From the NCBI GenBank assembly GCA_023247725.1, contig JAHFFW010000002.1:64160-128159 (forward strand): DNA of 64,000 nucleotides, read 5' to 3'. Positions 3-63,998 of this stretch are shown here, in pieces (positions within the stretch are counted from its first letter, which is position 1; every line of letters starts with the position of its first letter). The DNA comes from Candidatus Omnitrophota bacterium. GTDB taxonomy: Bacteria; Omnitrophota; Gorgyraeia; Zapsychrales; JAHFFX01. The notes under the pieces were generated by a model that was not told the origin of the DNA, did not search any database, and saw only the letters and a list, made by a program, of their open reading frames with translations. A program made the translations under genes and the position numbers.

Positions 3-3000
3 AAACAGGGATCAGCTTCTGAATCTTCTCACCCCCCCGAAGAAGTTGATAAATACGACACCAACGTCAACCCCAATCCCATCACCTTTGGCGATGCCAA
101 TCGTCTGTGGATGTCGGCGCCGCGCCAGGATCGTCCGAAAGGAACCGTCTACGTGGATTTGTTGGGCCGGATTGTCGGCGGGGCGCAGACGACCGTTACC
201 CGGGTCATCGACGGCAAAGGTAAATTCAGACCGCAGCTTGACACCTTAAGCGAACGAGAGTTGGTCATGGGCCAGAGTCAGCAGCTCAAACGCAATCTTT
301 TGCAATACAAATTGAAACTTGCAGAAGTGGCCGCTATTGTGGGCGTTAGCAAGCCGGACCAAGCAACGCTCAATGGATTAGCCCAAACGGCAGTAGAGAC
401 CGCCACCCAAGTGGACAAAGATGGCCTGGCCGGCTATCTTGCCGGCGAACATGAGAATAATAATCCCCAGACTTATCGGGAAGAAGGCGAAAGTGCTTTG
501 ACGGATTCGGTGGTTGATTGGCTGGATAAGGTCAAAGGCGTAGGAGACCAGTCCGTCGACGATCACCTGAGCAAAGTCTTCACCCTGGCGAGTGCGGTCG
601 CGGGTTTGAATGAAACAAATCCCGCCGCTGCCTCCGGCCCGCAGAAAAAAGCGGAACCCTCTCCCGCCGACGCTTTTCTCAAAACGCTGCAAAATAATCC
701 CGCAGCCAAGGCAGATTTAATAAAGGCTTTAACCCAACAACTGGATAAAGAAGCCGAGGCCCTCGCCTTTGCCGTCAATGAAGCGCTTCTGGGCGACAAA
801 GTCAAGGGCAAGGGCCCGGACGGTCAAAAGATTGACCGGGCGATTTTATCGGAAGTGGCCTTCAACTATAAAGGGGATTATCTCTGGACGCCGGGCGGCG
901 ATTGGATGTCTTTTGCGAATTTTGGTAATCCGGGCCGCGTTTATGGAAAAGAGGAAGGCAGGCTGCCGGCCTTGCGGCAGACACTTTTTCGAGGAAACCT
1001 TGTGGACGGCAAAGGGGAGCTCCTCAATAAGAATCTCGGAAACCTCGACGAGAATTCCAAGATGATCGGCAGCGAGTTTATCCTCGCCCAGAAAAATTTC
1101 GACAACGCAGTCCAGGTCAACGTTCATCCGTTCTCCGCCAACCTTTATCCTTATAAGGCGACGTATTTTTTCTATCCAGGAATGGGTCAAGAGAGTGATG
1201 AAACGCCTCCAGAGAGAAGTCTCTATTTCAGATTATTCCCGGAACCATTCGGATTCACGACATATGATGCAAGTGCCACTCCCGCGTTGGCCGAACAGGT
1301 CGGGATCGATGTCGTCCAAGAGCGGGCTCGGGCAGCTGCGGATGTAAAACTCAATTATGGAGACAGTGCCGAGGTGTTGCCATCCAATCCCCGGTTAGAC
1401 TTGGATGCGGTCTATGCCAAGGCTGTCAAGACCTATTTGGATCTCCATAAAGACAAAGGGGACGAGAATCCGGAGGAAGCGGCAGCGACCGGCCGGGACG
1501 CGGCCATAATAGCCCTCACCGAGGCAGGTTTCAGTGACATTTATAATGAAGCGAAGAACAATTATCTCGCCGCGGGTGGACAGCAGTTTGAACTCGGTGA
1601 AGTGACCGGATTGAATAATGATGTGGACGAGCAGCAGTCCATCTCCAAGCTTTCGCTGCTGCACGCCATCGGACGATTTTATCTGGCGGGCGAAGATGGG
1701 GTGAGTTTTGGTAACCCTCAATTGGGGGCGATCACCAATACGGCGGGTCTTTTCACTTTGAAGAAAGGGGCGGCGATTATTTATGACATGGCCCGAGATA
1801 AAGATGGGAATCTCGCGAAAGACGAGGATACGGGAAAATTTGTGGGAGAAGTCCCGAAGTTCACCCGTGGCTCCCAGGTCATCCCCGCCTTTCAACAGTT
1901 AGGACTAAAAGAATTTCAGCGCAGTAGGGATCATTCGGAAAGCGGCCTGGCCCTGGTGCTTCAAGGAACCGACACGCTCTGGGAACAGAAGCCTGCGCCG
2001 TCAGTCCAAGATAGGCTTCTGCCGTCGGACGCTCAGCAGGATGACTCTCCCGAGGCCGTCGAAATTGCCAAACAAAAGGTCGGTGCCGAAACACTCGCCG
2101 ACAAAAAAGAAGCGTCCGCCGGGGATAAAGGCCAGTTGGCCGAAGAAGACTTTCTGCAGCCGGTTTTTGCCGAGGGCGCTCCGCATCGAGTGAAAGACCG
2201 CTTTTATAGCGCCCTGGCGCTTCGCGGTCAATCGGGCAGGCTCGAGTTGCTGCCGCCGCGTCAGGATTTTGTCTCCGATGGAACACCCTGGATCGACGGG
2301 CAGTTCGGCGATATCGCGGGCTTTACGCCGGAGTGGAAAGGTTTTGGAGCTACGGGAGAAACACAGAAAGTGGCAGGGTTCCTGCATCCGCAACCGCCCA
2401 AGGAAGACAAGGATAACAAGAACCAGGGGATCGATACGGTTCGGGATGCTGTGGCAGGTTTAAACATATTGACTGGCTACTCTTCTGCGGGAGACGCGAT
2501 TCCTTCCGACGCCGAGCAGGATGAGTCTCCCCAGGCGGTCAAAATCGCTAAGCAAAAAATGATGGGGGCCGCCAAAGCTGGAAGTTTGAATCAATTAACA
2601 CCTGGAGTCGTCGGCGGTTCGCTGCTTGCCTACACCACCAACGTTGTTACAAAAGACGCCGAGTTCAAATTAGGTTTGCAGAAAGAGGACAAAGTACCTT
2701 CCGACGCCGAGCAAGATGCCTCCCCCGAGGCGGCCGAAGTCGCCCTGCAAAAACTCGCCGAGGAAGCCATGGCCGAAGGGCCTCCCGATCATATAACCCG
2801 CCTGGCCAAAGTGGGCCGCCTCGCGGCGGTCGATGTGCCGCAATCGTGGCTGCTTATCCCCGGTGGCGATCTTTTGCCGACGGTGGGAGTGTTCGGAGGC
2901 GGCGTCACAATCACGAGTAAGGCCTGGGAAACCTTTTTTCCGGATAAAATAGCCAAGGCTGAGGCTATTAAAAAGGGATACGTCAAGTATACCAACGATG

Positions 3001-6000: not shown

Positions 6001-9000
6001 CGTACACGAACGAGCAGCGGAAAAAGAATGGGAATCCGATAAGAATCGACGAGGCATTCAAAAGTAGAGTGGCGAGCCAGAGCGATTCTCAGGTCCAGAT
6101 CAAAATATGGAAAAATCGTAGCAAAGGCGAAACGGAATGGGTTTTCGTTGATCGCGGCAAAATGATGGTCAACCAACATGATAAAAAGAACGCCCAGCCG
6201 GATTCTTTCGGTGGCGCAGAAATACTGGATATTATGGGCGTGGATGCGGCGACCCAGAAGTACATGCGGGAAGAGATTGCGAAGCTGCCCGGGGACAGGA
6301 CGCTTGATTTTTCTATTGATCCATCGGAGGCACGTCATTACCGCTTCAACGCCACCAATCTCGCCGATATTGCTACGTCCGTTTTCACCGGTTCCTCCAC
6401 CGGTAGTAAATATGATACGCTTGTGGGTTACCGGTATATGAACCCCGACAGCATGGAGCGATTGGCCGATTATATGGTGAGTACGGGAGTGTTGCCCTTC
6501 GCCGACCTGGCTGAGCAAGCCCGCAATATGAAAGCAAATCAGCAATGGGAAAGGGCTATAGACAAGGGGTTTATAGTTTGGATCGTGGCGGATGCGGCGA
6601 CCATTCTATTTAAAGGTTTTGGGTGGTCACTGGTAGCTAGAGAGGCGGTCAAGGAGTCTTTAAAAGCAGGACAAAAAGTTGCATCCCGCCGTGCATCCAG
6701 CCTTATTTTTGAAAGAGTCCTGAAAGAAATGGGTGGGAACTATGCCAAACTAACCGCGAGACAGATTATTTCCAGAGCTTTGGCAACAGGCGCCGGTCGA
6801 TTAGCTGCAGAATGGGGATTGAATTCCATGTTATTGATGTCCTATATGGGCCTCACCGGTCAAAAGATGAGCATGGACGGTCTGGTCTACTTGCTCGGTT
6901 GGAGTTTTTTGGGCCGGTACGGGTTCTTTAGCAGCTCGGTTCGTGGAAAAATGTTGAACCCTCTGAAAAAGATGGGTTTAGCTCCGTTGGAACGAAGCGC
7001 CCTTACCAGAACTGGCGCGGTTGCGTCCGAAAGTTTCTTGAGCGGTATCACCAGCTGGAAGACTCGGTCTGTGATGGGCGGTTTTGGCATGGCCGCCTAC
7101 GGGATCGACCAGAAAGTATTAAGCGGGCTGGATGAGCAGAATTCTATCCGGTATTATTTCCGCAAAGGCGCCATTGCGGCAATTGCCATGATATTTTTTG
7201 GCCGCGCCCTTTTTGAGGGCGGCAAGGAGGGCGAGGCGGCCTTTAGCTTCTCTAAGGCGATGATTACTAAATCGTTCAAAGCCTTTGCGCCTTGGGCAAA
7301 CGAGGAAGAGGTCCAAGCAATAAGCAGGCGCCTTATGTACGACTACTTCGACAAGGGCGGCCTGTGGAACTATGGGAAAGGTACAGGATCTTTATTCTTG
7401 ACTCTAGCAAAAGAATCTGCGCTTTTGCCGACGGTGGGATTGGTCTATGGGGGAAAGAAAGCCGTCGACGCGTATGTTGATAAAAAAACTCGGGACCGGA
7501 TCCAGAACGTTTTATTAACCACCGCGACCATGGCCCTGGGCGCCGTAGTGGTGGGAGCAAAGAAAGGCGGAATACGGGAGTTCGCCAAAGCCTTCGGGGT
7601 AGGAAGCCGGGCGTCGGCGTATAACCTTGCCCGTAACATCGCGGTAGGAGCCCTGGCGGTTAAGACCGTGCATGAATTTTGGAAAAAGGGAGAAGACAGC
7701 AAGGCCGAGCTATGGGGAATGTTTTTATTGGCAGCCCTATTTGCCAAGCCATTATTGAACATCTGGAGCATTGAGCACATGGAGCTGGCGGATGACTTGG
7801 TGAAAGACGGGGCCGGGAAACTCGCGAGGCAAATGATAAAACCAACACCAATAGCAGGTGGTATACGCTTGACCGAAACTCAGATTAAGCAAATTGTTAG
7901 TGCCACCAAAACCCTTCGTACCACTGGAAATGTTATCGTTAATCTTGGGACCAAAGCCTTTTGGACGATCGCCGTCAACTCGGCCATGGGTAAGCCCATC
8001 CCCTTCCTCGGCTGGGCGACCCCAGACGACCGGATGACCGGCGTCAAAATGATGGCGGCTATGGTGATACTCCCTGGTATGGCAGAAGGGACCTTCAATG
8101 CCTACCGGTTGGGAGCGGGAAAAGGAATAGGCCTGGGAGGGAGTCGTTTGCTCGGCGCCGGGCTGGCCACCGCCACCGTTGCTTCGTCGGTGGGCCTGGC
8201 CTATGGCGGTTTTTCTATGGCCACCGCCACCGGTCGCAATGAAGATATCCTGGGCTTTGATCAAAAACTATTCGGTTACGGAGTGATGCTTCTTGGTCTT
8301 TCGACTCCGGGTGTCATGACCTCCCTTTATAGAGCCAAAAATATTGCCATGGGTCCTCGCCTTCTCGTCGCCATCTCAAACATTGTCAAGGATGCGGTGC
8401 ATATGGTGCCGCAGTTGATGGCATTTAATATGGTGATTCCCGTTGCTCAGCACCTGGCGGCGATCAAATCCCGGATTGACACTTATGGCGAGCAAGATGG
8501 CATTGATCGAAGTAATCCTCTTTATGGGACCGCGAAACTGGATGAGCAGGGCGATATTGCGCGAACTCCCGAGGCGGGAGGGTGGCGAGTGCTCGGCAAG
8601 ATCTTCGGTTATAACTCTTTTGAAGAATCAAGACAGCGCGAACGCTCCGAATTATTGGCCCAATATCAAGAAAAGGGTGATCAGCGATTATTGGATGCAT
8701 ATAAAGAATTGGGTACTAGTGAAGGTTACTGGATACGGGTTCTTTTCAATTCGGCTTATCAGGGCGCCAAGACGGCCCTGTACTTCGGCCCCTCGATGTA
8801 CGGGATGCGCTTTGTCCTGCATCCGGGGTTAATGACCATTCCGCTCATCGGGGAATCGATGTATTATCTGGGCGATGACGCTATAGGGATGGGAGACAGG
8901 GCGTTTAATTTCCGCAGTATTGAGTCCCTGAATGGCAACAAGTGGTTGCAAGGCTTCGCCAACTTTGCCAACAATTCGCAGAACTTCTTCTTCGAGGAGT

Positions 9001-12000
9001 TCTTCCGCGAGCCGATCATTTCCACGTTTTTCCGGATCGTTCTGGCGCCTTCCGGCTTGGGTCAGCCCCGTTCCGACAGCCCGTATTTCTCCATCTACAA
9101 CGGTTTCATGGAAATCGTTCAGGAGGCCGGCGACAAAACTCCGGAAACCACGTCGTTTGCCAAGGGTTCTATTTATCAAAAAGAGTGGAGCGGCAAAGTG
9201 AAAGACGCCGCCGGCCAGGCCTTAAGACAAGTGTCCTTGGAAGTGATCAAAGAGTTCATCGATAAACAAACACTTGAGGTAATACAAGACGGCAGTGGTT
9301 ATTTTAGTAGACTTGGCTTGGGGAAGTATTCAGATGCAGACGATATTATTGACTCTTTCACGGAGCAGATTAGAAGTATACGGATGGATAAAGATGCCAG
9401 GGATCAATTGCAGGAGGTTTTGGACCTATATTGGGGAGCCGGCGTTGTTGATGTGCACGACTTCTTAAATCAGTTGCAAAAAAATCCGATCTTGATTGCC
9501 CCGGAGGAATTGGCATACATCACGCGGGATGATCTTTTGGATGCGTTGGACCGAACTGATTCATCGCGCCTGAGTTCGAGCAAAAAACAACGTTATAAAG
9601 ACATCCTGCTGGAAGGTATGAATCCCGATGATATCGTTGTTCAACAAGGAACGTTTGTGCAACCCTGGGACGCCGCGGCCGCCGCTGGCCCCGCGATTGG
9701 ATTTGGATTCACTGTCCTGAGTCAGAGAACCTCTGGCGCCCTCAAAGGCGGGAGGCCTCGCGATGCCATTTTCATGTTGGCCAACACCGCCATTCACGAA
9801 GGCGGCGCGGGTTTTTCTTCCTATGGTCTAGGACGTCCCGGGTCATCATTCCCAAATAAACCTGTTTTATTCAAGGGCAGTAAGCTTCCTATGTATTCTC
9901 CAGACGAAGTTAATCACCTTTTGGACGAGCTTGCTGCGGATGAGAGGTTACCCCCCGGACGCAAAAAGGACAAGAGATTTGAGGAAGTCGAGGAGGCTAG
10001 GAATCATAATTTTGCTTTGGTCGGCGGTTTGACCGGGCGGTTTGCTTTGCGTTCGCAATTGCTGGCGCATGTGGAGAAGGCCCGTCGGGAAGGCCGCACG
10101 CAGAGCGTTGGCTTCCGCGGCGGCAATCCGAATCGTCAGGATCGCCATAATGATCCCCATGCCTATGAGATTATCCTGGTGGAAGGAATGGAAGCAGCTG
10201 GTTTAGGTCCGGCGGTCAATGATGGGAACAAGATTTATATCGATCAGGCGGCGTGGAATGGACAGAGCCAAGAAGCGAAAGAAAAGCTGGCGCAGGGCAT
10301 GACTCTGGAAGAAATCCGCAATGGAATCATCCAGCATGAATTCGAAGAAGTCGTGAAAGTCGCCCGCATCGGGCGTAAGTTGGGCAGACAATCCGGTAAA
10401 AAGATGTCGGCCAATCAGGCGGTCGCGCGCGTCAATCAGAGTCGGTACACCAGTTATCGGGCGTTTAAGTTCGGCCACGACAATGCCGCGGCTTCGCCGT
10501 TTGCTTCCACCTCCTCGTCGCCTGAAACCCGCAGCCAGAGTCAGATCGCCAATGATAATGCCAGGCGGGGTTTGGAAGTTCTTGAGCAGCTCGCCAGGGA
10601 AGCCATGGAAGGACCTCAGGCACCGACCACGGCTCAGCCAATGACCGCCGCTGGTTTGATCGAGGGTAAGAAACGAACGCCCTCCTATGCCTGCACCGAC
10701 GGGAATTGTAAGGAAGAAAATCAATTTGCCGCGGCGCCCTTTGCTCAGACGTCCGGTCCCTCCCGGCCGACGCTGCAGTTAGCCACGGTTGCTGCATTGC
10801 CTGACCAGAAGGAGCAGCGTCCGCAAGGATCGACCGACATCAGCAATCAGGGAACCATGACCGGAACTGGTTCGATGATCGTGGAAGATGATGGTTCTAC
10901 TTTCACGTATAAGGGGTTGGAGGGCTCGCTGGCTGTGACCCGAGGCCATTCTTACATGGACCCCACCCACATTAAAGTCGAGAATGCCGGCAGCATCGAG
11001 AGCAATGGTTCAACAAAAATTTATGACAGCAATATTGAAATAAAAAACGAAGGCACGATCAGCACACAGGGGTCAGGCGACATTCATAACGCCAATATTA
11101 AAATTCATGTTAAGCCGGGCGAAACAGTCGTGTTCGGCACAGGTTCGCAAAAGGCGCAAACGACCTTCTCCACCGGGAGTAATGCCTCAGGGAAAGCCCT
11201 GTCACCGGCAGCGACTGCTGTCAATTTCAGTTTACGGCCGAAGACATCGTTACAACGAAATTTCCATCTGGGTGGGGCCACGCCTCGCTTTAGTCCGGGG
11301 GTATCGGGAATGACGATTAAGGGACCGCCCGTATTGCCTCATTTCATCGGCCCACTTTCTTCCAACAACCCTTCCACCTCCTTCTCTAATAATAATACAG
11401 CAAATCCAGCTTCCCCAATTCAGATCGCCAAAGCGCAACCGGCCCAGCTAGCCACACCCAACGCTCAATCTGTGACCTTTACGGTTCCGAGTTCCGGCGC
11501 GATTCAGTTGGCCGGTACGGCAAAAACGCCTTCGACTCCGCTGGCCCTGGCAGCGCTCGCGGCTGTTATCGCCAATGAGCGAAATTCCGGCTCCGCCAGC
11601 CCCGCCGTTGACGGGGCCAACGTCACTGACCATCAACAAAAGATTGCCTTAAGTAGTACCCCCGACCACAATAAACCTGTCCGCCTGTCCTTGAATATGG
11701 GCGAGGGCAGTGTTGTGCTTCCGGCCACGCCGCAAGGGGTAAAATCCGTTGGCCATCCGATGTACGACGTGAGTGGAAGATACGATCATGTTGCTGAAGA
11801 CCAAAGAGGATATCTTGAAGGTCTCCACGGACAATTGGCCGATACGTTTGTAGGAGTGGAGGCAACCGCCAGAAAACTAGGTTTCGATAATTTGCCAACC
11901 ACAGCTCGCGTTGATCCCGACGATTCTTTTGCTGTCTATTATAATGAGCAGAAAGAGATCAAGGTTCAACCAGCCTTTCTCAAAATGGCACAGGCGTCGC

Positions 12001-57000: not shown

Positions 57001-60000
57001 CCGGATCTGCCATTGATGAAAGTGCAGTAGAAACACCGAAGTATCGTTCTCATCGCATCATCGGTAATGCGGTTAGTTTAGTTGAAGCCGGTGCCCGTTA
57101 CACGGTAGCGGCCATAGCTCAGATTATCCGCAATTCCAAGGTTCTTAGAGTGTCTGTTCGTAAGAATGGACAATTTAAGAATAAAGCCTTAGATTCCGAG
57201 ATCGATGGCAGTAGAAGTAAAGCTCAAGCCGTAACGTTAGGCTTTGAGCCGTATCGTTCTGGTAATAGAGAAGCAGGTAATAATCTCCGGTTCGCAATAG
57301 GTCTGGTCTTGGCGAAAGCCGTGACTGGAGCTAAAGCTGACTTGAGAGCGTTATTGAAGGTTCTTGGAGTTTATCTCGCCGAAAGGCTGGAAAAGGTCCG
57401 AGAAAAAATCTTTGGTTTTGCTGGTTCCCTCAAGGTCCGTATCAATCGAGTTGGGGCGAACGTCGGCCGGCAGGCCAGAGAGGGTTCTGACAAGCGTGTC
57501 AGCCATGGCACGGCTGCAGTCTTTACTGGCAAGTTCAGCAGTGTTGCAAGTAGGGTAATTGCCCTAGCAATAGCTAGGATCTTTACGTTACTTACAGTTC
57601 TTAGAGTCCGCCTGGCAGAAGTAATCAAGGTACAGGCTGAAGCTGAGAATAGCTTCTTGGAGTTTGCACTCTCTACCTTTGATAGTGGTAGAGTCGACGC
57701 ATTAGAGACTTCAAGAGACACTGTTACTAGTCGTAGAGAAGATGAACGTGGTTCTCAGCGTAATGTTCCAGTGGTGGAAGCAGTGGAAACTGCTGAAGCA
57801 CTGGCATCTGAAATTCTCGGAGTGCGTCAAGGTGCTGAAAAAGACCGAAATGCGACCGGGAATTCCGACGTTACCGGGAACGTAATTCTTGCTCAGCAGG
57901 ATCGTTCAGTTGGTGGAACTGGCAACGAAGTCAACCTTGCTGAAGCTGTTAACGTTAACGCCCTCATGGGTGATCGAACAACAGCCGCAGCAAGCAGTGC
58001 TTCCAAGCCTGAGAATTTCGGAGTGCGATTGGCCAAATGGCTCAACGTGATCCGAGAGTGGTTTTTGAAGACTGTCCCCTCGAGCCTAAACAGGATCGAG
58101 GTTAAAGCTTTAAGAACCAACCGCAAGACCACCAATAAAAATGTAGCTCCAATTGTCAACACTGAAACGAATACGTTCGTTTCAGTGGCTTTGCAAACTC
58201 TGTCTGTCAAAGTTCGCAATGCAAGAGAACTTTGGCAACGGAGAAAGTCTGTTTCTGCAGTCCAAGAGTTGATCTCTACTCAGATTTCCAACCTACGTCG
58301 TCTCATTCAAACCCTCAAAGAATTCGCTAACGTTCAATCAGTTCCTAACCAAGGAGGATTCCCATGGACAAGAATATTCGTTTTGACCATTTTGTTGAAT
58401 TCACTAAGAACGACTGCCTCTTTTGCGCAGGCCGTCAACCGGGCAGCAAACGTCGAAGTTTATACCTCATCGTTAACCACACCGGCCGGGTCTATGAACG
58501 ACATTTTAATAGCTGGCGCCTTGTCGATTCTGATGCTGAGTCTCATATTCGCCGCGAGGCCGAGAGCGCCAAGCTCGGAGGTGTCCCGTGTTACGTCACA
58601 CACAGCCACTTCAGCAATTAATCCTGCCGCAAGTATTCTTTCTGCCGCTTCATTAAGTAATCCTCATCGTGTAACGATTGATCAATCATCCATGTTTGAT
58701 TCTGCCCAAGTTGAATTGCTCCCCAACATTCAGGCCCAATTGGCCTACCTGGCCTTGAATGGTCAGAATGCAACCTCGCTGATCGATACCATCCTCACTT
58801 CAGAAACCGGAGACACCACCCAAGCCGAAAATCTCCTTCGGCAACTTCAACGTAATGCCCAAATGAGGCCTAGCGATGATGTGTTAAAGCCGTTTATTCT
58901 GTCGAGAGTCCACAGCATTAACCTAAAAAATCCGACCAGCAGCGACTTGAAATATATGATTTGGGCTTCCCGGAGAGGTTACCGTTTATCAAATGAGATG
59001 CAGAACTTAGTTGGCCGGGCCACAACCCTAATTGATGATGACGAAATGATGAAGGATTTGGCCGTGCAGATTTTGCCCTTTATGCGGGGTGCAGCGACCG
59101 AGCGCTTGGTCGATGTGCTCCGCCCCGAAGGTGTGGTTCGTTTCCTGGCTAGCGATACCATGCGTATCGTAGGCATCCAAAGGGGAGAGGTTTTGCCGGA
59201 ACGTGAAATTCTCGAAGTCATTGCGCTCAGAGTCAAGCGGGGTGTTTATGATCGAGATGCCTTAAAGGCGGAATTTGACCGGCTTTATTCCAGTGATTCT
59301 CAGCAGAATTTATTGGAAGGCATCTTTGACCGGAATATGGATCGTTTGGAAGCTCTGGCGAAGTTGCTCGAGGAAGATGAAGAAGATAAAGAACAGCAGC
59401 GCATCTTCTTCAAACCGGAAGATGACTTGGTCGGCTTGACGGTGCGTTTGCGCGAAGCGACGGTGGTGCAAGATGAGGACGCGCTTCAACCTGGTCACCA
59501 ATTCGACCAAGATTTATTGCATCGCCGCTTAAGGCGGGAAGGACAGCTGGAAATTCATGACCTGGAGCGGCAATACAGCGAATCCCTCAAAGAATTGGAC
59601 AAAAATTATGCCAATCGTCACACCAATGACAGCCAGAAGAAGGCCTACAATGACGATAAGAAAGATTTGGACAAGTGGCTGACCGAACAAAAGCGCCAGG
59701 CGAAAATCCGCCGTCAGTTGCAGGAACTGGGATTTGCCTTGCACACTCACAAGATCGTGCAAGGGGATCTGAGGCTGTTCCGCCGATCCTTGGGAACGAT
59801 GGTCTATGACGGTCTGTTTGTCGGTGAGAAGGACATCCTGGCGCTGTTGAAGAAAGACGTGGATGTTATGGACATGATGGCGCAATGGGATACCTTAGTC
59901 GATCCAGCGCAGCGGAAAGAATTTTACCGAGATTTCATGATCGCTCCGATGATGGCCAACCGCGGCCAATTTGATGTGAGCCAATTGATTCTCCGGTTGT

Positions 60001-63000
60001 CTCATCCGCAGCATATGACCTTGTATCTGGAAGATCATATCGAGCTGGTTATTCCGGCTCAGCAAGCGCAAGTTGAGAATGATGCCCAATTCATCCGCGA
60101 GCAGGCCCAAGTGGCGGTTGTGCCTGGCGAAACCAATGAAGACCTGGGGGACATTGCTTCCAGCCGGGGAGGACGAAAACTCATGCAGTCGCTGCCTCTG
60201 CCCAACGGGAATGTCTGCGTGGCCTCCATGCCCGAAGAAACCGCCCGCCGCGGGTTCAGGTCGGCCGGTGACCTCGAATGGGGCCTGAACCGATATCGCA
60301 TCATTAAAGATTGGTTGAAGCACACCTTCGGCCGGCCGCGGATCACGCAATTCATCAGCCCGCGGGGGCAGGAAGCCCTCGCGCATGCCGTGCGCTCCTC
60401 TAATCCTCAACGCACCCTGATGATGATCAGCGGCTTCGCCGGGGCAGTGACCAATGATATGCTGGACGAGTTACGATCGGTTAATTTCGCAAGTACCAAT
60501 AATGTGCGCACGATCCTGACGGTGGAGGCCATCTTCGACGCGATCCGCGCCGATCACGAAGAACCACGAGACCGGGCCAGGCTCGAAGAACTGCAAGAGC
60601 ACTATACAGAATATGTTCAATCCATTTCGGATCCGAGCTCAGATTATTTAAAGACTCAAACAGCCTTTGCCAACAGTTGCAGTGCGGCGGCAGATGCCAG
60701 CGATAAGGCTTATGTCGCTTACCGCCAACATGCGGATGGGGTGAAAACCCAGGGAAGAATCTTTCAGCTTTTGGCGATTGGGAACATGACGGTTAAGGAT
60801 GCGGTCGAACTGATGGAAGATACCGACAGCAAGGGTTATAAGGCCATCCAGGAAGAAGTTCAATACGATCTCGATAATCGCAAGACCCAACGTGGCGGCA
60901 AGCTGGTCAAATTCCGCGCCAGGGCCATGGCGGCCATCCGAGCTCAGAGAACGTTTGGATTCTATATCAAGAAATATGTCTTGGTCCCGCTGGCCGTTCA
61001 GATTGCGGCCATTGTGGTGCTTTATTTAGTGTTCCATGTCATCGCCGTCATGGCTGCAACATGGGGGGTTGTCCACCTTTCCTTACTGGGTTTTGAAATT
61101 GTCACCATCAATTTCGCTGAGGCTCTGACCTTCAGCCACGTTGTTGCATTCAATCCGATAGACAAAGCCCAAGCCATTCTACCGTTTATTCTCTCGGTCG
61201 TCTTGCTCATTGCCCGTCACGAATACGGCCATGATCTGCACGCCTTCATGGTGGGTGATCCTAATAAACAAGGAACAAATGAACCATCTCTTTGGAATTT
61301 ATTTAAGAATATTCCGCAGTATATAAAACCAATGAATCTTTTCGGGATGGTCTTCTTTGGCGGTCTGGGACAGGGCGGTTCGACGACCATTAATCCCAGA
61401 GTTATGAGGAACAAAGGATACCGGTTTGTCGCTTTAGGTGGACCGTTATTCAACATCCTGGGCGCCTTGAGCGGACTTATCCTTTGGGGAGCGATGAGTG
61501 TATTGGGTCACTTTGTGACCATCCCGGCCTTGATCATCTGGGGGACTAAGATCCTGATCCTGGTTGACCTTTACTTTGTTATCCCCAACCTCATTCTGGC
61601 CATCTCGGTCAAACTTCCGATGATGGGCGACTTGACGTCGGACGCGGCCCATATCTACTTCGGCAAAAAAGCCGTCATGAATGAAGACAAAACAAAGAAC
61701 CACATACCGTTCTGGTTTAAGATATTCAGCTGGGTTCTACTCGCCGGATTCTTCTATTTCCAATATGCTCATTTTTATCGTTGGGTTAGTGCCATTGGGG
61801 CCCGCATGGGATTGACGGCGATCAATCTGCCTGCCCTCCAAATCGCCGCAGCCGGCTTACCGTTGAAGGAAATCATGATCGTGATTGGCATTATTCTCTT
61901 GATCGCGATGGTGGTCAAGCTGAGGCACGGAGAACCCGGAAAAGCTACTGCGATATTTTCGTTGTTCGGATTGTGCGTCGGGATTTATCTCCTCATCGGT
62001 TCAAACCAGACGTTTACTGTCGGCGCGATGGTGACTGGCTTTATGAAAATTCTGGCAGCTGTTTCTACGACCTTCTTGACCATTGGAATCGTCCTCGCCT
62101 TGGCCGTCCTCATCGCTCAATGGGCCTCGAAGCACTCCTCACAAATTAAAGTGAAGGTCACCCGGGTGTTGCTGATCCTCGGGGTCGTGTCCGCGCTCTT
62201 AGGCGCTAGCGGAGTCCTCTATCGGCTTCATGCCGCCGGAGAGCCGGTACAGTCTTCACAGACAACGGTTGTTCAGCCTCGCGCCCCGCCGCCAGGGGGC
62301 ACCACCACGCCGACACCCGCGGCCGCCCAACCACCGGCTCCGGCGACGCAAACCACGCCGACCACGCCGGCGCCTGCCGCTCAATCGTCACCCGCGCCGG
62401 TCGCCGGGCAACCGGTCCAGCCGGCGGGAGCCGGGACTCAAGCTCCGCCGTCTCCGACGACACTACAAACCACCCAGCCGCCGGTTGCAAATCCGCCGCA
62501 GGCTCCGGATGCCGCGCAAGCGACTGCGAGTTCAGCTGCTGGCCAGGCCTCAGCCCCAGCTCCAGTGCCCCCGCCACCCGCATCCGGCCAGGCCTTTGCT
62601 TCTGCGGGGCCGCAAGGCTTGCCAGATCGCACTGATTTATTGATCGTTGCCGACACCGCGAAACTTTCGCAGGATCAAAAGGATGCTCAGTCTCTGCACA
62701 TTTATACATTGGATGAAATCATCTGGAAGTCAGTGGAGAATCTGAAACGCCGCGCGCAAGCCCCGGACGCCGCAACGAAGGATGCTGCCGCCGTCACCTT
62801 GGCCGGGGCTCTGGAGCCCCGCCAGCTGTTCTTTGGGAACGTGGAAAACGGCCGGGTCCTGATGCTCAAGGTTAGCGATGAGCCCAAAATGATCTTCTTC
62901 GACAATACTCTGGCGGCGGCCGGCGATAAAGCGGGGGTTGATCCTGCCAAGCGGGTCGATATCACCTATGTTAATCTAACCCGCGATAATAAGGTGTGGT

Positions 63001-63998
63001 TCAATCTTCCGGGCCACGGCGAATTTGTGGTGGACCAGGAAGGTGTGGCGCAGAAGCAGGTGAATACCCGAGCAAGTGCCGAAAGAAATCCGGCACAGCC
63101 GCAAAATAAACCTTCCCCCACCTCGGCCAAAGAAATCGTGTTGGCAATTATCTTGGGAATTGCGCTCATTCTCGCCTGGAATAGTTTCAAGAAAATAAAG
63201 CGGACGTACTGGATTAAGAGAATCAAAGAACTCCTGGCGCAAGCAAGAGGAGCGCTTACGGAGGGCAAATGGCCGGAAGCTGGAAAAGCCTTGAAAAAAT
63301 TGGAAGACAACAACGCGGTTCAGGATATGGAACCAGAGCAAAAGGAGGAAGTCCAATCCCTTCAAGAAGAATGGAATAGACAGAAAAAGGAAAAAGAGGA
63401 AGAGCAATTGGGTGCCCGAATACCTCCCGAAATTCTGGGCAGAATGTCGCCTGAGTTTCTGGCCCGGCATATCCGTGCCCGTTTCCATGAACGCATTAAG
63501 GCTAACGATGCCGATAAAAATCTAGACCCCGATGAAGCCAAGCATCAATTACGAGTAGTTCAAGAAGAATTGATTGAAGACTTAATGCATTCGGTCATGC
63601 TGGATGTCAGTTTGTTGGCCAAGGCGGCCGTCAAGATTTTGGAGGAATTTCTCAAGGCCGAGGAAGCCCAAAAAGACAATCGAGCCAACTCGTGGGCGGG
63701 CGAGACGATTTTTGAGGCTATTCGACGGAAGGCAGAGACCTTGATGGCCCAAGGCGAGATCGTAAGAGCACGGATGAATCCCGGCGAGAAATTAGCGGAC
63801 GGAGATTTGATTATCATTGATCGTCGTGACGGCATGAGGTTGATTTTCGGCGAGCATGCCTTTGGAGAAAACGACGTGCATCCCTATGCCTATGACCTCG
63901 GAGGAGGCGGACGGCAAACGATTAATCCACAGGATATTGACCATGGCCTGATTGATAAACTGGTCAAACCTAAGTCGGCGAAGAGTGAAAAGCCGGTG
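3..63998 (+). CDS. Internal fragment of a giant multidomain protein gene (at least 21,332 codons within the window; 5' and 3' ends lie outside the window)
   Basis: Seen in sequence: reading triplets from position 3 I found no TAA/TAG/TGA through 63996-63998. I re-checked the frame at both window ends, in AT-rich stretches (about 29700-29900 and 32400-32460) and near 41160. All + strand ORFs in the supplied track have start mod 3 = 1 or 2, none = 0. A stop-free frame cannot appear as a bounded ORF, which explains its absence from the track. The frame shows a strong GC-rich third-position bias (gcc/ggc/ccg/gtc/acc). The translation reads as bona fide protein with catalytic motifs. Inference: I translated by eye and cannot fully exclude one missed stop; the track's lack of any frame-3 ORF argues against that. 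Confidence 0.9.
2019..2750 (+). repeat. Three in-frame copies of a ~20-aa motif [LIV]PSDA[EQ]QD[DEA]SP[EQ]A[VA][EK][IV]A[KL]QK (copies at about 2019-2078, 2499-2558 and 2691-2750)
   Basis: Seen in sequence: ...ctgccgtcggacgctcagcaggatgactctcccgaggccgtcgaaattgccaaacaaaag / attccttccgacgccgagcaggatgagtctccccaggcggtcaaaatcgct / gtaccttccgacgccgagcaagatgcctcccccgaggcggccgaagtcgcc. The third copy is followed by LAEEAMAEGPPDH, which recurs as LAREAMEGPQAP near 10590-10640. Confidence 0.75.
6570..8470 (+). other. Hydrophobic, Gly/Ala-rich helix-rich region (at least 8 candidate membrane-spanning or amphipathic helices); possible polytopic membrane domain I
   Basis: Translation contains runs such as FIVWIVADAATILFKGFGWSLVA, MLLMSYMGLTGQKMSMDGLVYLLGWSF, IAAIAMIFFGRALF, VLLTTATMALGAVVVGA, LWGMFLLAALFAKPLL, MMAAMVILPGMAEG, LLGAGLATATVASSVGLAYGGFSMATA, GYGVMLLGLSTPGVM and LLVAISNIVKDAVHMVPQLMAFNMVIPVAQHLAAI. 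Hydrophobicity was judged by eye only. Confidence 0.4.
11440..12880 (+). repeat. Duplicated linker block (SVTFTVP[S/G]S..AIQ...LALA[A/V]LAAV...SASPAVDGA[N/S]VTDHQQKIAL) flanking an HEXXH module; 62-bp near-identical DNA at 11589-11650 and 12819-12880; a third degenerate copy at about 14760-14960
   Basis: Seen in sequence: ctccgccagccccgccgttgacggggcca[a/g]cgtcactgaccatcaacaaaagattgccttaag occurs twice, 1.23 kb apart. Both copies are preceded by SVTFTVP... and an Ala/Leu-rich LALAALAAV segment. The 14.8-kb copy shares LILAALAAAVAPDRHDSAQVNS. Confidence 0.8.
11950..12200 (+). other. HEXXH zinc-metallopeptidase-like module 1 (HEFGH at 12018-12032), possibly ImmA/IrrE-like
   Basis: Seen: ...RDVVMAHEFGHAARQHRQLMEKNPLANKEEAELTQSEVHQLERIVQGNELQADQDAVDIAV. 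This has HEXXH plus a downstream E-x-Q-A-D-x-x-A motif resembling the Glu third-ligand motif of ImmA/IrrE-type zincins (established family knowledge). The assignment is by motif only. Confidence 0.4.
13950..14012 (+). other. Internal twin-arginine (Tat) signal-like motif SRRSFLKGAMGAALTPRATAQ
   Basis: Seen: tcc cga agg tct ttc tta aaa ggg gcg atg ggt gct gcc ttg aca cct cgc gcg aca gcg caa. This matches the canonical [ST]RRxFLK followed by a short h-region and an A-x-A-like site. An in-frame Met (ATG about 13821) lies 43 codons upstream. It could be a vestige of gene fusion or chance. Confidence 0.3.
17927..18450 (+). other. Clan-CD cysteine peptidase-like module (caspase/legumain/clostripain-type His...Cys dyad): His codon 18135-18137 (FGAHGPY), Cys codon 18264-18266 (VLLESCFTGKG)
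   Basis: Seen: KAIVVYTKADNNG...IDFGAHGPYTADSMNYGKGGALTVGRWQALRGKVSGALAEKGRVLLESCFTGKGG. An H-G is followed about 43 residues later by hydrophobic-x-E-x-C. This is the spacing and context typical of clan CD peptidases (established family knowledge). Motif-level inference only. Confidence 0.45.
19215..19335 (+). other. Predicted transmembrane helix (LVMVPKLVAAVVAVALIVPAIASAAGAVG)
   Basis: A run of about 28 aliphatic residues preceded by WRGR. Seen in the translation. Confidence 0.6.
19340..20290 (+). repeat. Pro/Thr/Ala/Ser-rich low-complexity segment containing a 78-bp (26-aa) tandem repeat x ~2.9 at about 19535-19760 (VEPIHSPIGTEL[TA]APTAPDSS..V.PL)
   Basis: Seen: ccggtggaacccatccattccccgatcggtacagagttaacggcgccaacggcacctgactcttcc... 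is repeated with a few substitutions, then decays into a generic P/T/A-rich sequence up to about 20290. Confidence 0.8.
20585..20700 (+). other. Predicted transmembrane helix with a basic stop-transfer tail (ATGAAITGIGLLATGLAGYGVY-RQRRQRSARNR)
   Basis: Seen in the translation. With the helix at 19215-19335 it would bracket the P/T-rich segment on one side of a membrane. Confidence 0.55.
23660..23880 (+). other. TPR-like helical repeat(s) (EYREARDLDPDTFEYAAMLGEAYVRLGK...)
   Basis: The motif pattern A..Y..A..DP with small/large residue alternation is typical of TPR (established knowledge). Assignment by eye. Confidence 0.4.
26080..26460 (+). other. TPR-like repeats (IEDFRQALSLTKDPRD...AIEYFREAVDLDPGEKHYREQLANA...FFEEAVRHAPDNQDF)
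   Basis: About three consecutive 34-aa-like units with A/F/Y positions and [DN]P turns. Assignment by eye. Confidence 0.45.
26980..28150 (+). other. Long coiled-coil-like region (heptad-like E/K/Q/L-rich: ...QQRAELLEEINRLKTEADGAQIDKDQRKG...AELAEKIAEKRSALQALEGQIQVQQRELLAG...)
   Basis: Seen in the translation. No heptad scoring was computed. Confidence 0.4.
29337..29399 (+). other. Internal Sec-signal-peptide-like sequence MKALLVGALMAIPAFASA|HG with in-frame ATG (29337-29339) and upstream aggg purine tract
   Basis: Seen: cgacgcatagggATGaaggcgcttttggtgggggcgctcatggcgattcccgccttcgcgtcggctcatggc. This has an n-region (RRIGMK), a hydrophobic h-region and an A-S-A cleavage-like site. It may be a fusion vestige, an internal start or a TM helix. 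Confidence 0.35.
30100..31270 (+). repeat. Module with a paralogue at about 45300-46210 (shared ~65-aa segment: A[MI]RIA[AG]D[IM]AR[DE].....[QD]HR[AD]F[LE][EK]EFN[KR]RAD[ND][PQ][ED]Y...REVALVP)
   Basis: Seen: IVVAMRIAADIARDPNSASRQDHRAFLEEFNKRADNPEYLNSVKQAIDRTAQEHQVALVPVARQ (about 31090-31280) versus IKLAIRIAGDMAREAPESLLDHRDFEKEFNRRADDQDYVARLIKEIAASDREVALVPAFTAD (about 46030-46215). Confidence 0.6.
35280..35520 (+). other. HEXXH zinc-metallopeptidase-like module 2 (HELGH at 35379-35393), ImmA/IrrE-like pattern
   Basis: Seen: ISRIIMNLDAGGFRNQTAAAVHELGHHGLAQITNADLNNNKPEPQNGKLREQQMVGEGIAETYARDGL. This has HEXXH plus a downstream E-G-I-A-E-T-Y-A motif. Confidence 0.4.
40200..40420 (+). other. HEXXH zinc-metallopeptidase-like module 3 (HELGH at 40263-40277), ImmA/IrrE-like pattern
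   Basis: Seen: FMSILGHELGHNQVIALYKRFGPEDYREKGWVPVTKDFGVIEEFGGDLFAADYIDN. This has HEXXH plus a downstream E-E-F-G-G-D-L-F-A-A-D-Y motif. Confidence 0.45.
43800..44260 (+). other. Class I (Rossmann-fold) SAM-dependent methyltransferase-like module (PrmA/HemK-like motif I and post-II)
   Basis: Seen: DLTGKTVLIAGFGDGIQAILAKKKGAKRVIAVDNNAAVLDLARENTRLNGMGGQIEFKTAWAEDLTPDEIGPIDVLVANLPG. Motif I is a degenerate G-x-G-x-G-like glycine-rich loop (LIAGFGDG), followed by an acidic loop (AVDNN) and a DVLVAN[IL]P motif characteristic of PrmA-type methyltransferases (established knowledge). Confidence 0.55.
46990..47110 (+). other. P-loop NTP-binding (Walker A) motif GGEGSGKST (about 47029-47055)
   Basis: Seen: REKGTLIVGGEGSGKSTLTYALVKKGFNYGGQGMDML. 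The motif GxxGxGK[ST] is preceded by a hydrophobic beta-strand. No Walker B was assigned. Confidence 0.5.
51870..53034 (+). repeat. Pair of ~110-bp direct repeats (about 90% identical) at 51870-51981 and 52923-53034, encoding linker DAAMAQRRKE[DG]ST[IT]SYEPTQ.EQ.ATARHS[DN]AAMAA; they flank the CheR-like module
   Basis: Seen: gacgccgcgatggcgcagcggcgcaaagaagattcgaccatttcttatgaaccgacgcagacagaacaaacggccacggcccggcactccgacgccgcgatggcggcg versus gatgccgcgatggcgcagcggcgcaaagaaggttcgaccacttcttatgaaccgacgcagagagaacaatcggccacggcccggcactccaacgccgcgatggcggca. Confidence 0.85.
52300..52900 (+). other. CheR-like (protein-glutamate O-methyltransferase-type) SAM-methyltransferase-like module
   Basis: Seen: FKAVLLGSSNGDDPVTKALTM...RRIDVVGVDISAQAIAKAKENLQSGKFRIDAEYIQ...ADAVFINSILYEVPKSAQAEFFEGLKRNMKPGAFLFLS. 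This parallels CheR motifs (IWSAGCSTGEEPYS.A..., I.ATDIS..AL.KA..G.Y, FD.IFCRNVLIYF...Q..V...F...L.PGG.L). Established family knowledge, by-eye alignment. Confidence 0.45.
54880..55290 (+). other. Pro/Ser/Thr/Gln-rich low-complexity linker with short TSPS/QEP repeats, preceded by a weakly hydrophobic helix (about 54790-54850, WLVRVAGVATALLAF)
   Basis: Seen in the translation: ...QPPPQSPQGQVVPPTPAD...GPTSPSRPQEPSSQEREQTSPSQRGAPSQGAGNQQGTPATGD. Confidence 0.6.
55450..55770 (+). other. Peptidoglycan-binding domain-like module (PG_binding_1-type signature)
   Basis: Seen: GDRGPAVRTLMRILRVVFDGEDG...YDEEFARQALQLWQ...NVERAIVALQNAFDIREDGDVGPETWSLLGEL. This matches the G..V..LQ..L......DG.[FV]G..T..A[VL]..[FW]Q...L..DG.VG..T...L pattern of PG_binding_1 (established family knowledge, by-eye). 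Confidence 0.5.
56100..58900 (+). other. Compositionally distinct segment of the giant ORF (visibly lower GC; Ala/Val/Ser use gca/gta/agt instead of gcc/gtc/tcc). It encodes a Val/Ala/Ser/Arg/Asn-rich region plus two predicted TM helices (about 58363-58440 and 58490-58565).
   Basis: Seen by eye: e.g. gcagttaggaatgtaggagcgcggataacaaaaattggaagcagtgttgtcaatgcagttagcagtttctttgtagcagaagcatacgcagcagaagtagcaggtagtgaa. GC not computed. Frame +3 remains open throughout. Confidence 0.5.
60980..62235 (+). other. Polytopic membrane region (at least 8 predicted TM helices) carrying HEYGH (61218-61232); reminiscent of M50/site-2-protease-type intramembrane metalloproteases
   Basis: Seen: VLVPLAVQIAAIVVLYLVFHVIAVMAATWGVVHLSLLGFEIVTINF...ILPFILSVVLLIARHEYGHDLHAFMVGD...FVALGGPLFNILGALSGLILWGAMSVLGHFVTIPALIIWGTKILILVDLYFVIPNLILAISVKLPMMGD...IMIVIGIILLIAMVV...LFGLCVGIYLLIG...FLTIGIVLALAVLIAQW...VLLILGVVSALLGASGVLY. 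HEXXH next to TM helices plus a later N-x-x-P-x-x-G-D-like segment loosely parallels the M50 HExxH...LDG pattern (established knowledge). Weak, motif-level inference only. Confidence 0.35.
62240..62610 (+). other. Pro/Thr/Ala/Gln-rich low-complexity linker (PRAPPPGGTTTPTPAAAQPPAPATQTTPTTPAPAAQSSPAPVAGQPVQP...)
   Basis: Seen in the translation. It generates the Arg/Pro-rich artefact ORFs 62230..62643(+) and 62438..62656(-) in the track. Confidence 0.7.
63120..63190 (+). other. Predicted transmembrane helix (IVLAIILGIALILAW) followed by a basic stretch (NSFKKIKRTYWIKRIK)
   Basis: Seen in the translation. Confidence 0.5.

Follow-up and report, generated by a model that had tools for sequence, protein, structure and literature searches.

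The 64,000-nucleotide stretch of Candidatus Omnitrophota DNA analysed here (assembly GCA_023247725.1, contig JAHFFW010000002.1, positions 64,160 to 128,159; hereafter the window) is occupied from end to end by one stop-free reading frame of 21,332 codons on the + strand (nt 3-63998, frame +3), an internal fragment of a giant gene whose start and stop both lie outside the window. The frame is open and coding-like, carries domains and hydrophobic helices, and is laid out as modules like beads on a string, with a short recurrent motif at the junctions between them. We consider it probable that the window is a genuine piece, at least 21,332 codons long, from the interior of one giant, non-repetitive, sparsely annotated and membrane-threaded gene of the Omnitrophota kind.

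A single open frame spans the window

In a six-frame stop count over nt 3-63998, no TAA, TAG or TGA codon was found in the 21,332 codons of frame +3. The other five frames contain 928, 1,203, 727, 929 and 470 stops, and the longest open run outside frame +3 is 280 codons. The base composition predicts a stop approximately every 21 codons, and the probability of encountering none in 21,332 codons is about 1e-443. These counts bear out the first-pass annotation of this DNA, which had proposed a single stop-free frame across the window and had expected a stop every 20-25 codons in a non-coding frame. It had also remarked, correctly, that the supplied list of open reading frames (ORFs) holds no + strand entry in frame +3; the frame is missing because the mechanical list omits ORFs that run off both ends.

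The frame also has a coding signal along its length. The GC content at the first codon position (GC1) exceeds that at the second (GC2) in every 3-kb slice of frame +3, and the fraction of purines at codon position 1 is 0.59-0.68 across the slices, each of which contains 30-75 stops in the two alternative + frames. The GC-rich third codon position that had been claimed holds in part: GC3 (0.551) is slightly above the overall GC content (0.521), but it is below GC1 (0.588). Codon usage is correlated between the four quarters of the window (r = 0.89-0.94), and so is tetranucleotide usage between its two halves (r = 0.94). The composition of the window fits a single origin. No tRNA or Rfam family was found in it.

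These data bear directly on whether the frame might be an assembly or polishing artefact, in which shorter genes, or reads from related strains, had been joined and happened to stay in frame. Assemblers are known to join giant genes wrongly or to break them up (bioRxiv 10.1101/2023.11.21.568195), and the window does contain a few short exact duplications, of 50 nt (starting at 22363 and 24517) and 31 nt (starting at 24485 and 25445). Such an artefact would, however, have had to keep the frame open against the chance given above, in a sequence of uniform composition and codon usage whose DNA repeats do not exceed 107 nt (94% identity), or 50 nt if exact. In addition, the junction motif, which recurs from nt 12732 to nt 58748, marks most of the window as having evolved as a single unit. 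There is no sign of a chimeric join in the window sequence, and we regard an artefact as very improbable.

A bipartite junction motif separates protein-sized modules

The junction motif was traced from short DNA repeat families, then by alignment, and then with a hidden Markov model (HMM). By HMM and pattern, the junction array (nt 12732-58748, residues 4244-19582, + strand) comprises approximately 36-40 copies in 25 clusters, which separate approximately 26 modules. The HMM finds about 40 copies, 36 of them at a per-copy E <= 0.01, in clusters of one to three copies. The consensus, D-[AGS]-A-[QSM]-[VA]-x(8-10)-[IVT]-[TSA]-[AS]-[DE]-[PEM]-[TRP], is bipartite and about 22 residues long, with its two boxes about 10 residues apart. 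The first box, D-[AGS]-A-[QSM]-[VA], occurs 37 times as compared with 0.84 times (maximum 4) in shuffled sequences, and all of its copies lie within residues 4246-20836.

Ten of the approximately 26 modules measure 290-380 residues, and the modules bear little resemblance to one another, with E < 0.01 for two pairs only. The recognised domains sit within modules and end at junctions. For the P-loop domain described below, the homology to two other long proteins, P0003 and P0007, stops exactly at a RADAAMA junction. The only clearly duplicated pair consists of the module at residues 9984-10441 (nt 29952-31325, + strand), a diverged duplicate of residues 14817-15436 (nt 44451-46310), with 29-37% identity over two collinear segments; both modules end at a junction and neither matches a family.

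The junctions are hydrophilic, and order-promoting residues are scarce in them (0.20 versus 0.27), as would be expected of exposed linkers. They are also distinctive at the DNA level, with the consensus GAC GCC GCG (ATG/CAG) G(C/T)G GA. The codon GAC accounts for 70% of the junction Asp codons versus 38% in the ORF, GCC for 78% versus 38% at the first Ala, and CAG for 87% versus 52%. Several of the D-A-A-M-A copies have 16-18 nucleotides in common although the modules on either side are unrelated. This bias at synonymous sites suggests a nucleotide-level constraint, gene conversion or recent spread of the motif.

When the junction DNA consensus was searched for in viral contigs, it turned up three times, each time as an isolated chance match in a GC-rich contig. 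A junction grammar of this kind is not described in the two surveys of giant genes consulted here (bioRxiv 10.1101/2023.11.21.568195; bioRxiv 10.64898/2026.06.07.730766), and the junction motif, together with the internal signal-like segments described below, is new here.

Recognisable domains are few and far apart

The translation was scanned against Pfam in 5,000-residue chunks and in overlapping 1,000-residue tiles (E <= 0.5), against NCBIfam, and against the sequences in the PDB. Approximately 97% of the product has no match in any of the three, and the recognisable domains, all in frame, are thousands of codons apart. The coherent catalytic motifs reported earlier are real, but few: two S-adenosylmethionine (SAM) methyltransferase domains, one P-loop domain with a Walker A motif, and four HEXXH motifs.

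Tetratricopeptide (TPR) repeats at residues 8732-8825 (nt 26196-26477, + strand) score above the Pfam threshold. The first methyltransferase, a class I, PrmA/PRMT-like domain at residues 14625-14721 (nt 43875-44165, + strand), scores 36-37 bits against PF06325 (PrmA; cut-off 22) and 51.4 bits against PF13649 (cut-off 27), and it matches PrmA and PRMTs in the PDB. The score against the full-length PrmA equivalog of NCBIfam is 41, far under the cut-off of 188, so that, as judged from these profiles, the segment is a PrmA-like domain and not PrmA itself. The second methyltransferase, at residues 17426-17614 (nt 52278-52844, + strand), scores 27.0 bits against PF01739 (CheR; cut-off 27), 31.2 bits against PF13649 (cut-off 27), and 13 against the NCBIfam CheR equivalog (cut-off 435). 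It is a generic class I methyltransferase, and the label CheR-like is tentative.

The P-loop domain at residues 15622-15821 (nt 46866-47465, + strand) carries the Walker A sequence GEGSGKST in an HprK-like motif pattern and terminates exactly at a junction motif. It scores 14.1 bits against PF07475 (Hpr_kinase_C), as compared with a cut-off of 33.3, and the putative HprK-like label comes from the motif pattern and faint profile matches. An HprK fold was not supported by modelling: the AlphaFold2 (AF2) model, built from a three-sequence alignment, has a predicted local distance difference test score (pLDDT) of 56, and a Foldseek search against the PDB returned nothing at E <= 0.001.

The four HEXXH motifs lie at residues 4006, 11793, 13421 and 20406. 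The first of them, HEFGH (residues 4006-4010), falls in a weak, M48-like candidate zincin region (nt 11859-12050, + strand) that is just sub-threshold (19.7 bits versus 20.3, E 8e-4). A HEAT match is likewise sub-threshold (E 0.011), and no DEAD/DExH motif was found in the ORF.

Hydrophobic helices are scattered along the product and clustered near the 3' end

Transmembrane (TM) helices were called by a hydropathy heuristic with shuffle controls. Twelve segments reach a Kyte-Doolittle (KD) value of at least 1.9, as compared with 2.4 in shuffled sequences, and ten reach at least 2.1, as compared with 1.0; one of the 12 is also counted among the signal-like segments. Candidate TM helices were located at residues 8410-8428 (nt 25230-25286, + strand; KD 2.11) and, as a pair, at residues 19181-19199 and 19500-19518 (nt 57543-58556, + strand).

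A cluster of about eight or nine predicted TM helices occupies residues 20334-20740 (nt 61002-62222, + strand), and the HEXXH motif HEYGH (residues 20406-20410, nt 61218-61232) lies at the end of one of its hydrophobic helices. The region may be an intramembrane metalloprotease, but its resemblance to a site-2 protease (M50) is confined to the motif and is not supported further: neither Pfam (PF02163) nor the PDB sequences gave a match at E <= 10, and the AF2 model (pLDDT 54, predicted TM-score 0.23) is too poor to be used. The cluster is followed by a linker rich in Pro, Ala, Thr and Gln (residues 20743-20878, nt 62229-62636, + strand). A further TM helix at residues 21044-21062 (nt 63132-63188, + strand) precedes a strongly basic stretch, with eight Lys or Arg in 20 residues, and this basic flank would be expected to be cytoplasmic.

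Export-signal-like segments lie inside the frame

Six segments of the ORF fit a simple n-h-c pattern of signal peptides, as compared with 0.84 in shuffled sequences. Three of them, at residues 4450, 6412 and 9775, resemble classical Sec signals with A-x-A sites. The first spans residues 4450-4472 (nt 13350-13418, + strand) and reads KRLGPWKRIAVAALAATIGLTNA↓PSAP, where the arrow marks the putative cleavage site. The second, at residues 6412-6440 (nt 19236-19322, + strand), reads RGRLV-M-VPKLVAAVVAVALIVPAIASA↓AG and holds the strongest isolated hydrophobic peak (KD 2.61). The third, at residues 9770-9797 (nt 29310-29393, + strand), follows directly on a triple junction and reads RKLSVFRRIG-M-KALLVGALMAIPAFASA↓HGTTPSP. 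An 81-nt (27-residue) tandem repeat of 2.4 copies at 81-85% identity (nt 19532-19732, residues ~6511-6577) lies about 70 residues downstream of the second segment.

In addition, residues 4648-4676 (nt 13944-14030, + strand) resemble a Tat signal, with SRRSFLK, then GAMGAAL, then TPRATA↓QK. The SRRSFLK sequence (residues 4650-4656) is an exact Tat consensus; from the amino-acid frequencies, the chance of SRRxFLK occurring in the ORF is about 1e-3. The Pfam TAT_signal profile gives 17.1 bits versus a cut-off of 22.7 (E 0.005). Both the Tat-like segment and the segment at residue 9775 begin six residues past a junction.

The Tat-like segment is not N-terminal: 4,647 codons of the visible frame precede it, and no start codon is found just upstream. 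A Tat signal normally functions only at an N-terminus. Its place right after a junction fits cleavage at the junction, the fossil of a former separate gene, or an internal start. A rival reading is that the frame consists of formerly separate genes, fused in frame, each still made chiefly as its own product from an internal start, with no functional unit of 21,000 residues. The ordinary protein sizes of the ten modules of 290-380 residues, among 26, would be accounted for in this way, and so would the Met residues that head the n-regions of two Sec-like segments at the expected place (M6415-VPK and M9779-K). An in-frame ATG is present at 11 of the 37 junctions, inside the DNA consensus that is conserved at synonymous sites, but at the other 26 the codon is CAG, AGC or another. 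Furthermore, no Shine-Dalgarno-like sequence is found upstream of M6415, M9779 or the Tat-like segment, and only 8 of the 419 in-frame ATGs have one. The loss of every stop over 64 kb with the frame kept would itself imply selection for read-through translation. On balance, expression as separate products is judged to be improbable.

The product is non-repetitive and poor in cysteine

Low-complexity sequence makes up 1.2% of the translation, and the amino-acid composition is ordinary except for an extreme depletion of Cys, with 10 in 21,332 residues (0.05%). Self-BLAST of the translation yields only seven weak local pairs, and Tandem Repeats Finder (TRF) reports three small tandem arrays in the window.

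The Cys residues are at positions 3564, 3569, 6088, 7189, 7956, 7959, 15947, 20072, 20226 and 20658; the close pairs CTDGNC and CASC may bind metal or form disulfides. The contents of Trp (0.8%) and Tyr (2.1%) are low as well.

The classical very large bacterial genes encode repeat-type adhesins or toxins (RTX/MARTX, Bap-like, dockerin/TSP3, Ig/FN3) or nonribosomal peptide synthetase (NRPS) and polyketide synthase (PKS) megasynthases, and modules joined by linkers do recall the MARTX effector arrays. For the window, a gene of this type is refuted. The Pfam tiles gave no match to RTX, cadherin, Ig, FN3, dockerin, TSP3 or C80, nor to the EF-hand repeats that, with dockerin and TSP3, mark the dockerin-type giant proteins of Omnitrophota; neither Pfam nor NCBIfam found condensation, adenylation, thiolation, ketosynthase or acyltransferase domains; and internal repeats are almost absent by self-BLAST and TRF. 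Only the unseen ends could still carry such domains, and we regard this explanation as extremely improbable. A gene of the Omnitrophota kind, as opposed to an RTX or adhesin-repeat gene, agrees with the non-repetitive sequence and with hydrophobic helices in excess of shuffle expectation.

Relatives are limited to single domains

Exact 47-54-mers from both ends and the middle of the window had no match in collections of genomes, metagenomes and viral contigs. Word-indexed protein searches with residues 1-1500, 14001-19000 and 20320-20760 (6,940 residues in all) returned no match. An exhaustive phmmer search with residues 14601-15800 against 1.84 billion representative proteins returned 273 matches, all at the level of a domain, most of which are ordinary PrmA-type methyltransferases aligned over about 110 residues. 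Four of the 273 are at least 1,300 residues long, and three of the four, P0007, P0019 and P0107, are from Candidatus Omnitrophota. P0019 has 2,480 residues, and its cluster includes a member of 3,694 residues on a 2.0-Mb contig; P0107 has 2,400 residues. Judged from the window sequence, these long proteins hint at an Omnitrophota origin, and a source in another PVC phylum, in Actinobacteriota, in a candidate-phylum episymbiont or in a mobile element would be less likely, though compatible with a giant gene. For P0003 (5,028 residues) and P0007 (1,328 residues), the BLASTP match is limited to the P-loop domain, at 31-32% identity, and the homologous domain of P0003 has a faint Hpr_kinase_C match on record.

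A search for related loci with the P-loop alignment gave three weak P-loop matches in unrelated phyla. Residues 14601-15830 identified no related locus in metagenomes, and megablast and tblastn against plasmids and phages gave no match. The absence of long homologues is in keeping with reports that such genes are mostly singletons. The silence of these searches does not prove the gene an orphan, as the source region may have been masked in the collections.

The locus of P0003 (L001; GCA_041643055.1, JBGGHI010000035.1, 10001-30156) has nearly all of its genes on one strand. P0003 itself also carries a HATPase_c domain and an intein, the next gene encodes an SMC protein that is interrupted by an intein, and an AbiEi/AbiEii pair lies just upstream. 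The tetranucleotide similarity between this locus and the window is moderate (r = 0.73).

Other sequence features

The region upstream of the junction array (residues 1-4243, nt 3-12731, + strand) has neither a junction motif nor a significant family match. At residues ~674-920 (nt 2022-2753), it contains three copies of the 19-residue motif PSDA(E/Q)QD(D/E/A)SP(E/Q)A(V/A)(E/K)(I/V)A(K/L)QK, which may be an alternative type of junction. A weakly hydrophobic stretch rich in Gly and Ala follows at residues 2185-2800 (nt 6555-8402, + strand), with five sub-threshold peaks of KD 1.4-1.6 and 42% hydrophobic residues per 1,000 residues. These values are not above shuffle expectation, and the stretch may be membrane-associated.

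The two exact duplications noted above (50 nt, 22363-22412 and 24517-24566; 31 nt, 24485-24515 and 25445-25475) lie inside the largest module (residues 7348-9690) and adjoin copies of a palindrome; they have the appearance of recent recombination or gene conversion within the gene. The extended palindrome, (CT)CACCCCGGGGGTGAG(AG), has five + strand copies, at nt 14786, 22809, 24495, 25455 and 26487. Four of the five are in frame and encode (A)SHPGGE, and the copy at nt 14786 is in a different register with respect to the ORF. This register shift suggests that the palindrome is a nucleotide-level element embedded in the coding sequence.

Comparison with known giant genes and multidomain systems

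Giant ORFs of 39,678, 85,804 and 147,155 residues and thousands of proteins of at least 10,000 residues have already been described (PMC10066038; bioRxiv 10.1101/2023.11.21.568195; bioRxiv 10.64898/2026.06.07.730766), and the near-record rarity and size attributed to this gene in the first-pass annotation are accordingly out of date. Proteins of at least 10,000 residues also occur in Verrucomicrobiota, Planctomycetota, Elusimicrobiota, Actinobacteriota and others (bioRxiv 10.1101/2023.11.21.568195). About 80% of them are singletons at 30% identity, with methyltransferase among the commonest domains (bioRxiv 10.64898/2026.06.07.730766). Those of over 20,000-30,000 residues with sparse domains are concentrated in Omnitrophota (bioRxiv 10.1101/2023.11.21.568195; bioRxiv 10.64898/2026.06.07.730766), where giant ORFs have few annotated domains, poor conservation and many TM helices (PMC10066038; bioRxiv 10.1101/2023.11.21.568195). 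The giant ORF of 'Candidatus Velamenicoccus archaeovorus' LiM, for example, has 39,678 residues and 42 predicted TM helices (bioRxiv 10.1101/2023.11.21.568195; PMC10066038).

The Archaeovorin type is defined by at least 30,000 residues, many TM regions and, in most full-length members, a divergent SecA_DEAD/SecA preprotein-binding domain. Its domain set includes glycosyl transferases, glycoside hydrolases, methyltransferases, peptidases, NUDIX and HEAT/TPR domains, and its genes have a locus resembling type II secretion or Tad systems upstream and PilZ and solute-binding genes downstream (bioRxiv 10.1101/2023.11.21.568195). The present gene resembles this type in being a single ORF of tens of kb, non-repetitive and poorly conserved, with few and divergent domains that include methyltransferase and TPR. 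It also has scattered TM helices with very long segments between them, and by hydropathy these are numerous. It differs in that the 21,332 residues seen here contain no SecA_DEAD domain, C39 or S8 peptidase, glycosyl transferase, glycoside hydrolase, NUDIX or significant HEAT domain. Conversely, a junction motif and internal Tat- or Sec-like signals are not described for Archaeovorins, the comparison being by description and not by sequence.

The 'multi-enzyme' class of Omnitrophota (Gorgyraeia), which includes Pfam-dark members (Nielsen & Lui 2026, bioRxiv 10.64898/2026.06.07.730766), is similar in having many different small domains with no single repeated one, methyltransferase as the commonest module-1 domain, TM segments in about 1-2% of residues, and 80% singletons, among which the present gene also appears to belong. 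Its giants of at least 80 thousand amino acids (kAA) hold 21-50 Pfam families, as compared with three or four significant families in 21 kAA here. In that study, internal signal-peptide calls were suppressed as artefacts of chunking (bioRxiv 10.64898/2026.06.07.730766), whereas the signals found here look real and lie at module starts.

In having unrelated, effector-sized modules with short linkers between them in a huge polypeptide, the product also resembles the MARTX toxins. The MARTX toxins of Vibrio and its relatives are 3,500-5,300 residues long and have Gly-rich RTX repeats at both ends, and their C80 protease cuts after Leu, the linkers between the effector modules being the processing sites. 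Neither RTX repeats nor C80 was detected here, and the junction sequence is unrelated. Viral polyproteins, such as those of the flaviviruses, are cut at conserved junctions and, by host signal peptidase, at internal signal sequences. The present gene shares with them a recurrent short junction motif between protein-sized units and internal signal-like segments with A-x-A-type sites. It is, however, a cellular gene with about six times the length of the longest viral polyprotein, and it has no viral hallmark domain and no phage or viral match.

Discussion

The open coding-like frame, the in-frame domains scattered along it, and a junction motif that extends over 46 kb agree with the first description of the window as an internal fragment of a giant gene, and they favour a gene of the Omnitrophota type. 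For genes of this type, roles in attachment to or attack on host or prey cells have been proposed from V. archaeovorus (PMC10066038; bioRxiv 10.1101/2023.11.21.568195). We infer that the giant protein spans the cell membrane, exposing very long stretches on each side of it, and that it would act as a scaffold or precursor carrying many separate activities toward a host or prey cell. The junctions would be exposed linkers and the most likely cut sites for the release of module-sized pieces. Independent export would then be conceivable for the two modules in which a Tat- or Sec-type signal directly follows the junction.

Several observations weigh against this interpretation. Cleavage at the junctions is purely an inference, and no protease domain passes its family threshold. 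The window contains neither a taxonomic marker gene nor any flanking gene. In Pfam searches of the window, glycosyl transferase, glycoside hydrolase and NUDIX domains were not found, nor were SecA_DEAD and C39 domains in the 1,000-residue tiles at E <= 0.5; the last two, said to be typical of full-length Omnitrophota giants, may lie outside the window. None of the searched collections yielded a homologue that is full-length or covers several modules. The junction motif was not found in five other long proteins (P0003, P0007, P0019, P0107 and P0155), nor were the internal signal-like segments. Moreover, if the segment at residue 9775 started translocation, the SAM- and ATP-dependent domains would end up outside the cell, a puzzle of topology that has been noted for other giants as well (West-Roberts et al., bioRxiv 10.1101/2023.11.21.568195).

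A more specific proposal is that the gene encodes a bacterial polyprotein with approximately 25 processing sites, each cut between D-A-A-(Q/M/S) and (V/A) and followed about 10 residues on by an (I/T)-(S/A)-(D/E)-P-T box. The protease that releases the modules may then be one of the gene's own HEXXH modules, and some of the freed modules would expose their own Tat or Sec signals and leave separately. We consider this proposal possible, if on the unlikely side. If it is true, a giant protein of a prokaryote would for the first time have a concrete map of its cleavage sites, and the synonymous-site bias would in addition suggest that the motif has a role at the nucleotide level, in recombination or gene conversion, as such genes are built up one module after another.

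As a giant, sparsely annotated and membrane-threaded gene, the sequence described here would be unremarkable on its own, as genes of tens of kb with unexplained function are known from ultra-small, host-dependent bacteria. What is new is its internal grammar, which consists of protein-sized modules, a hydrophilic junction motif, and export signals right after junctions. This junction grammar leads to predictions about processing that can be tested by proteomics, and it provides rational module boundaries for structure prediction and a motif model for the thousands of giant ORFs that have been catalogued.

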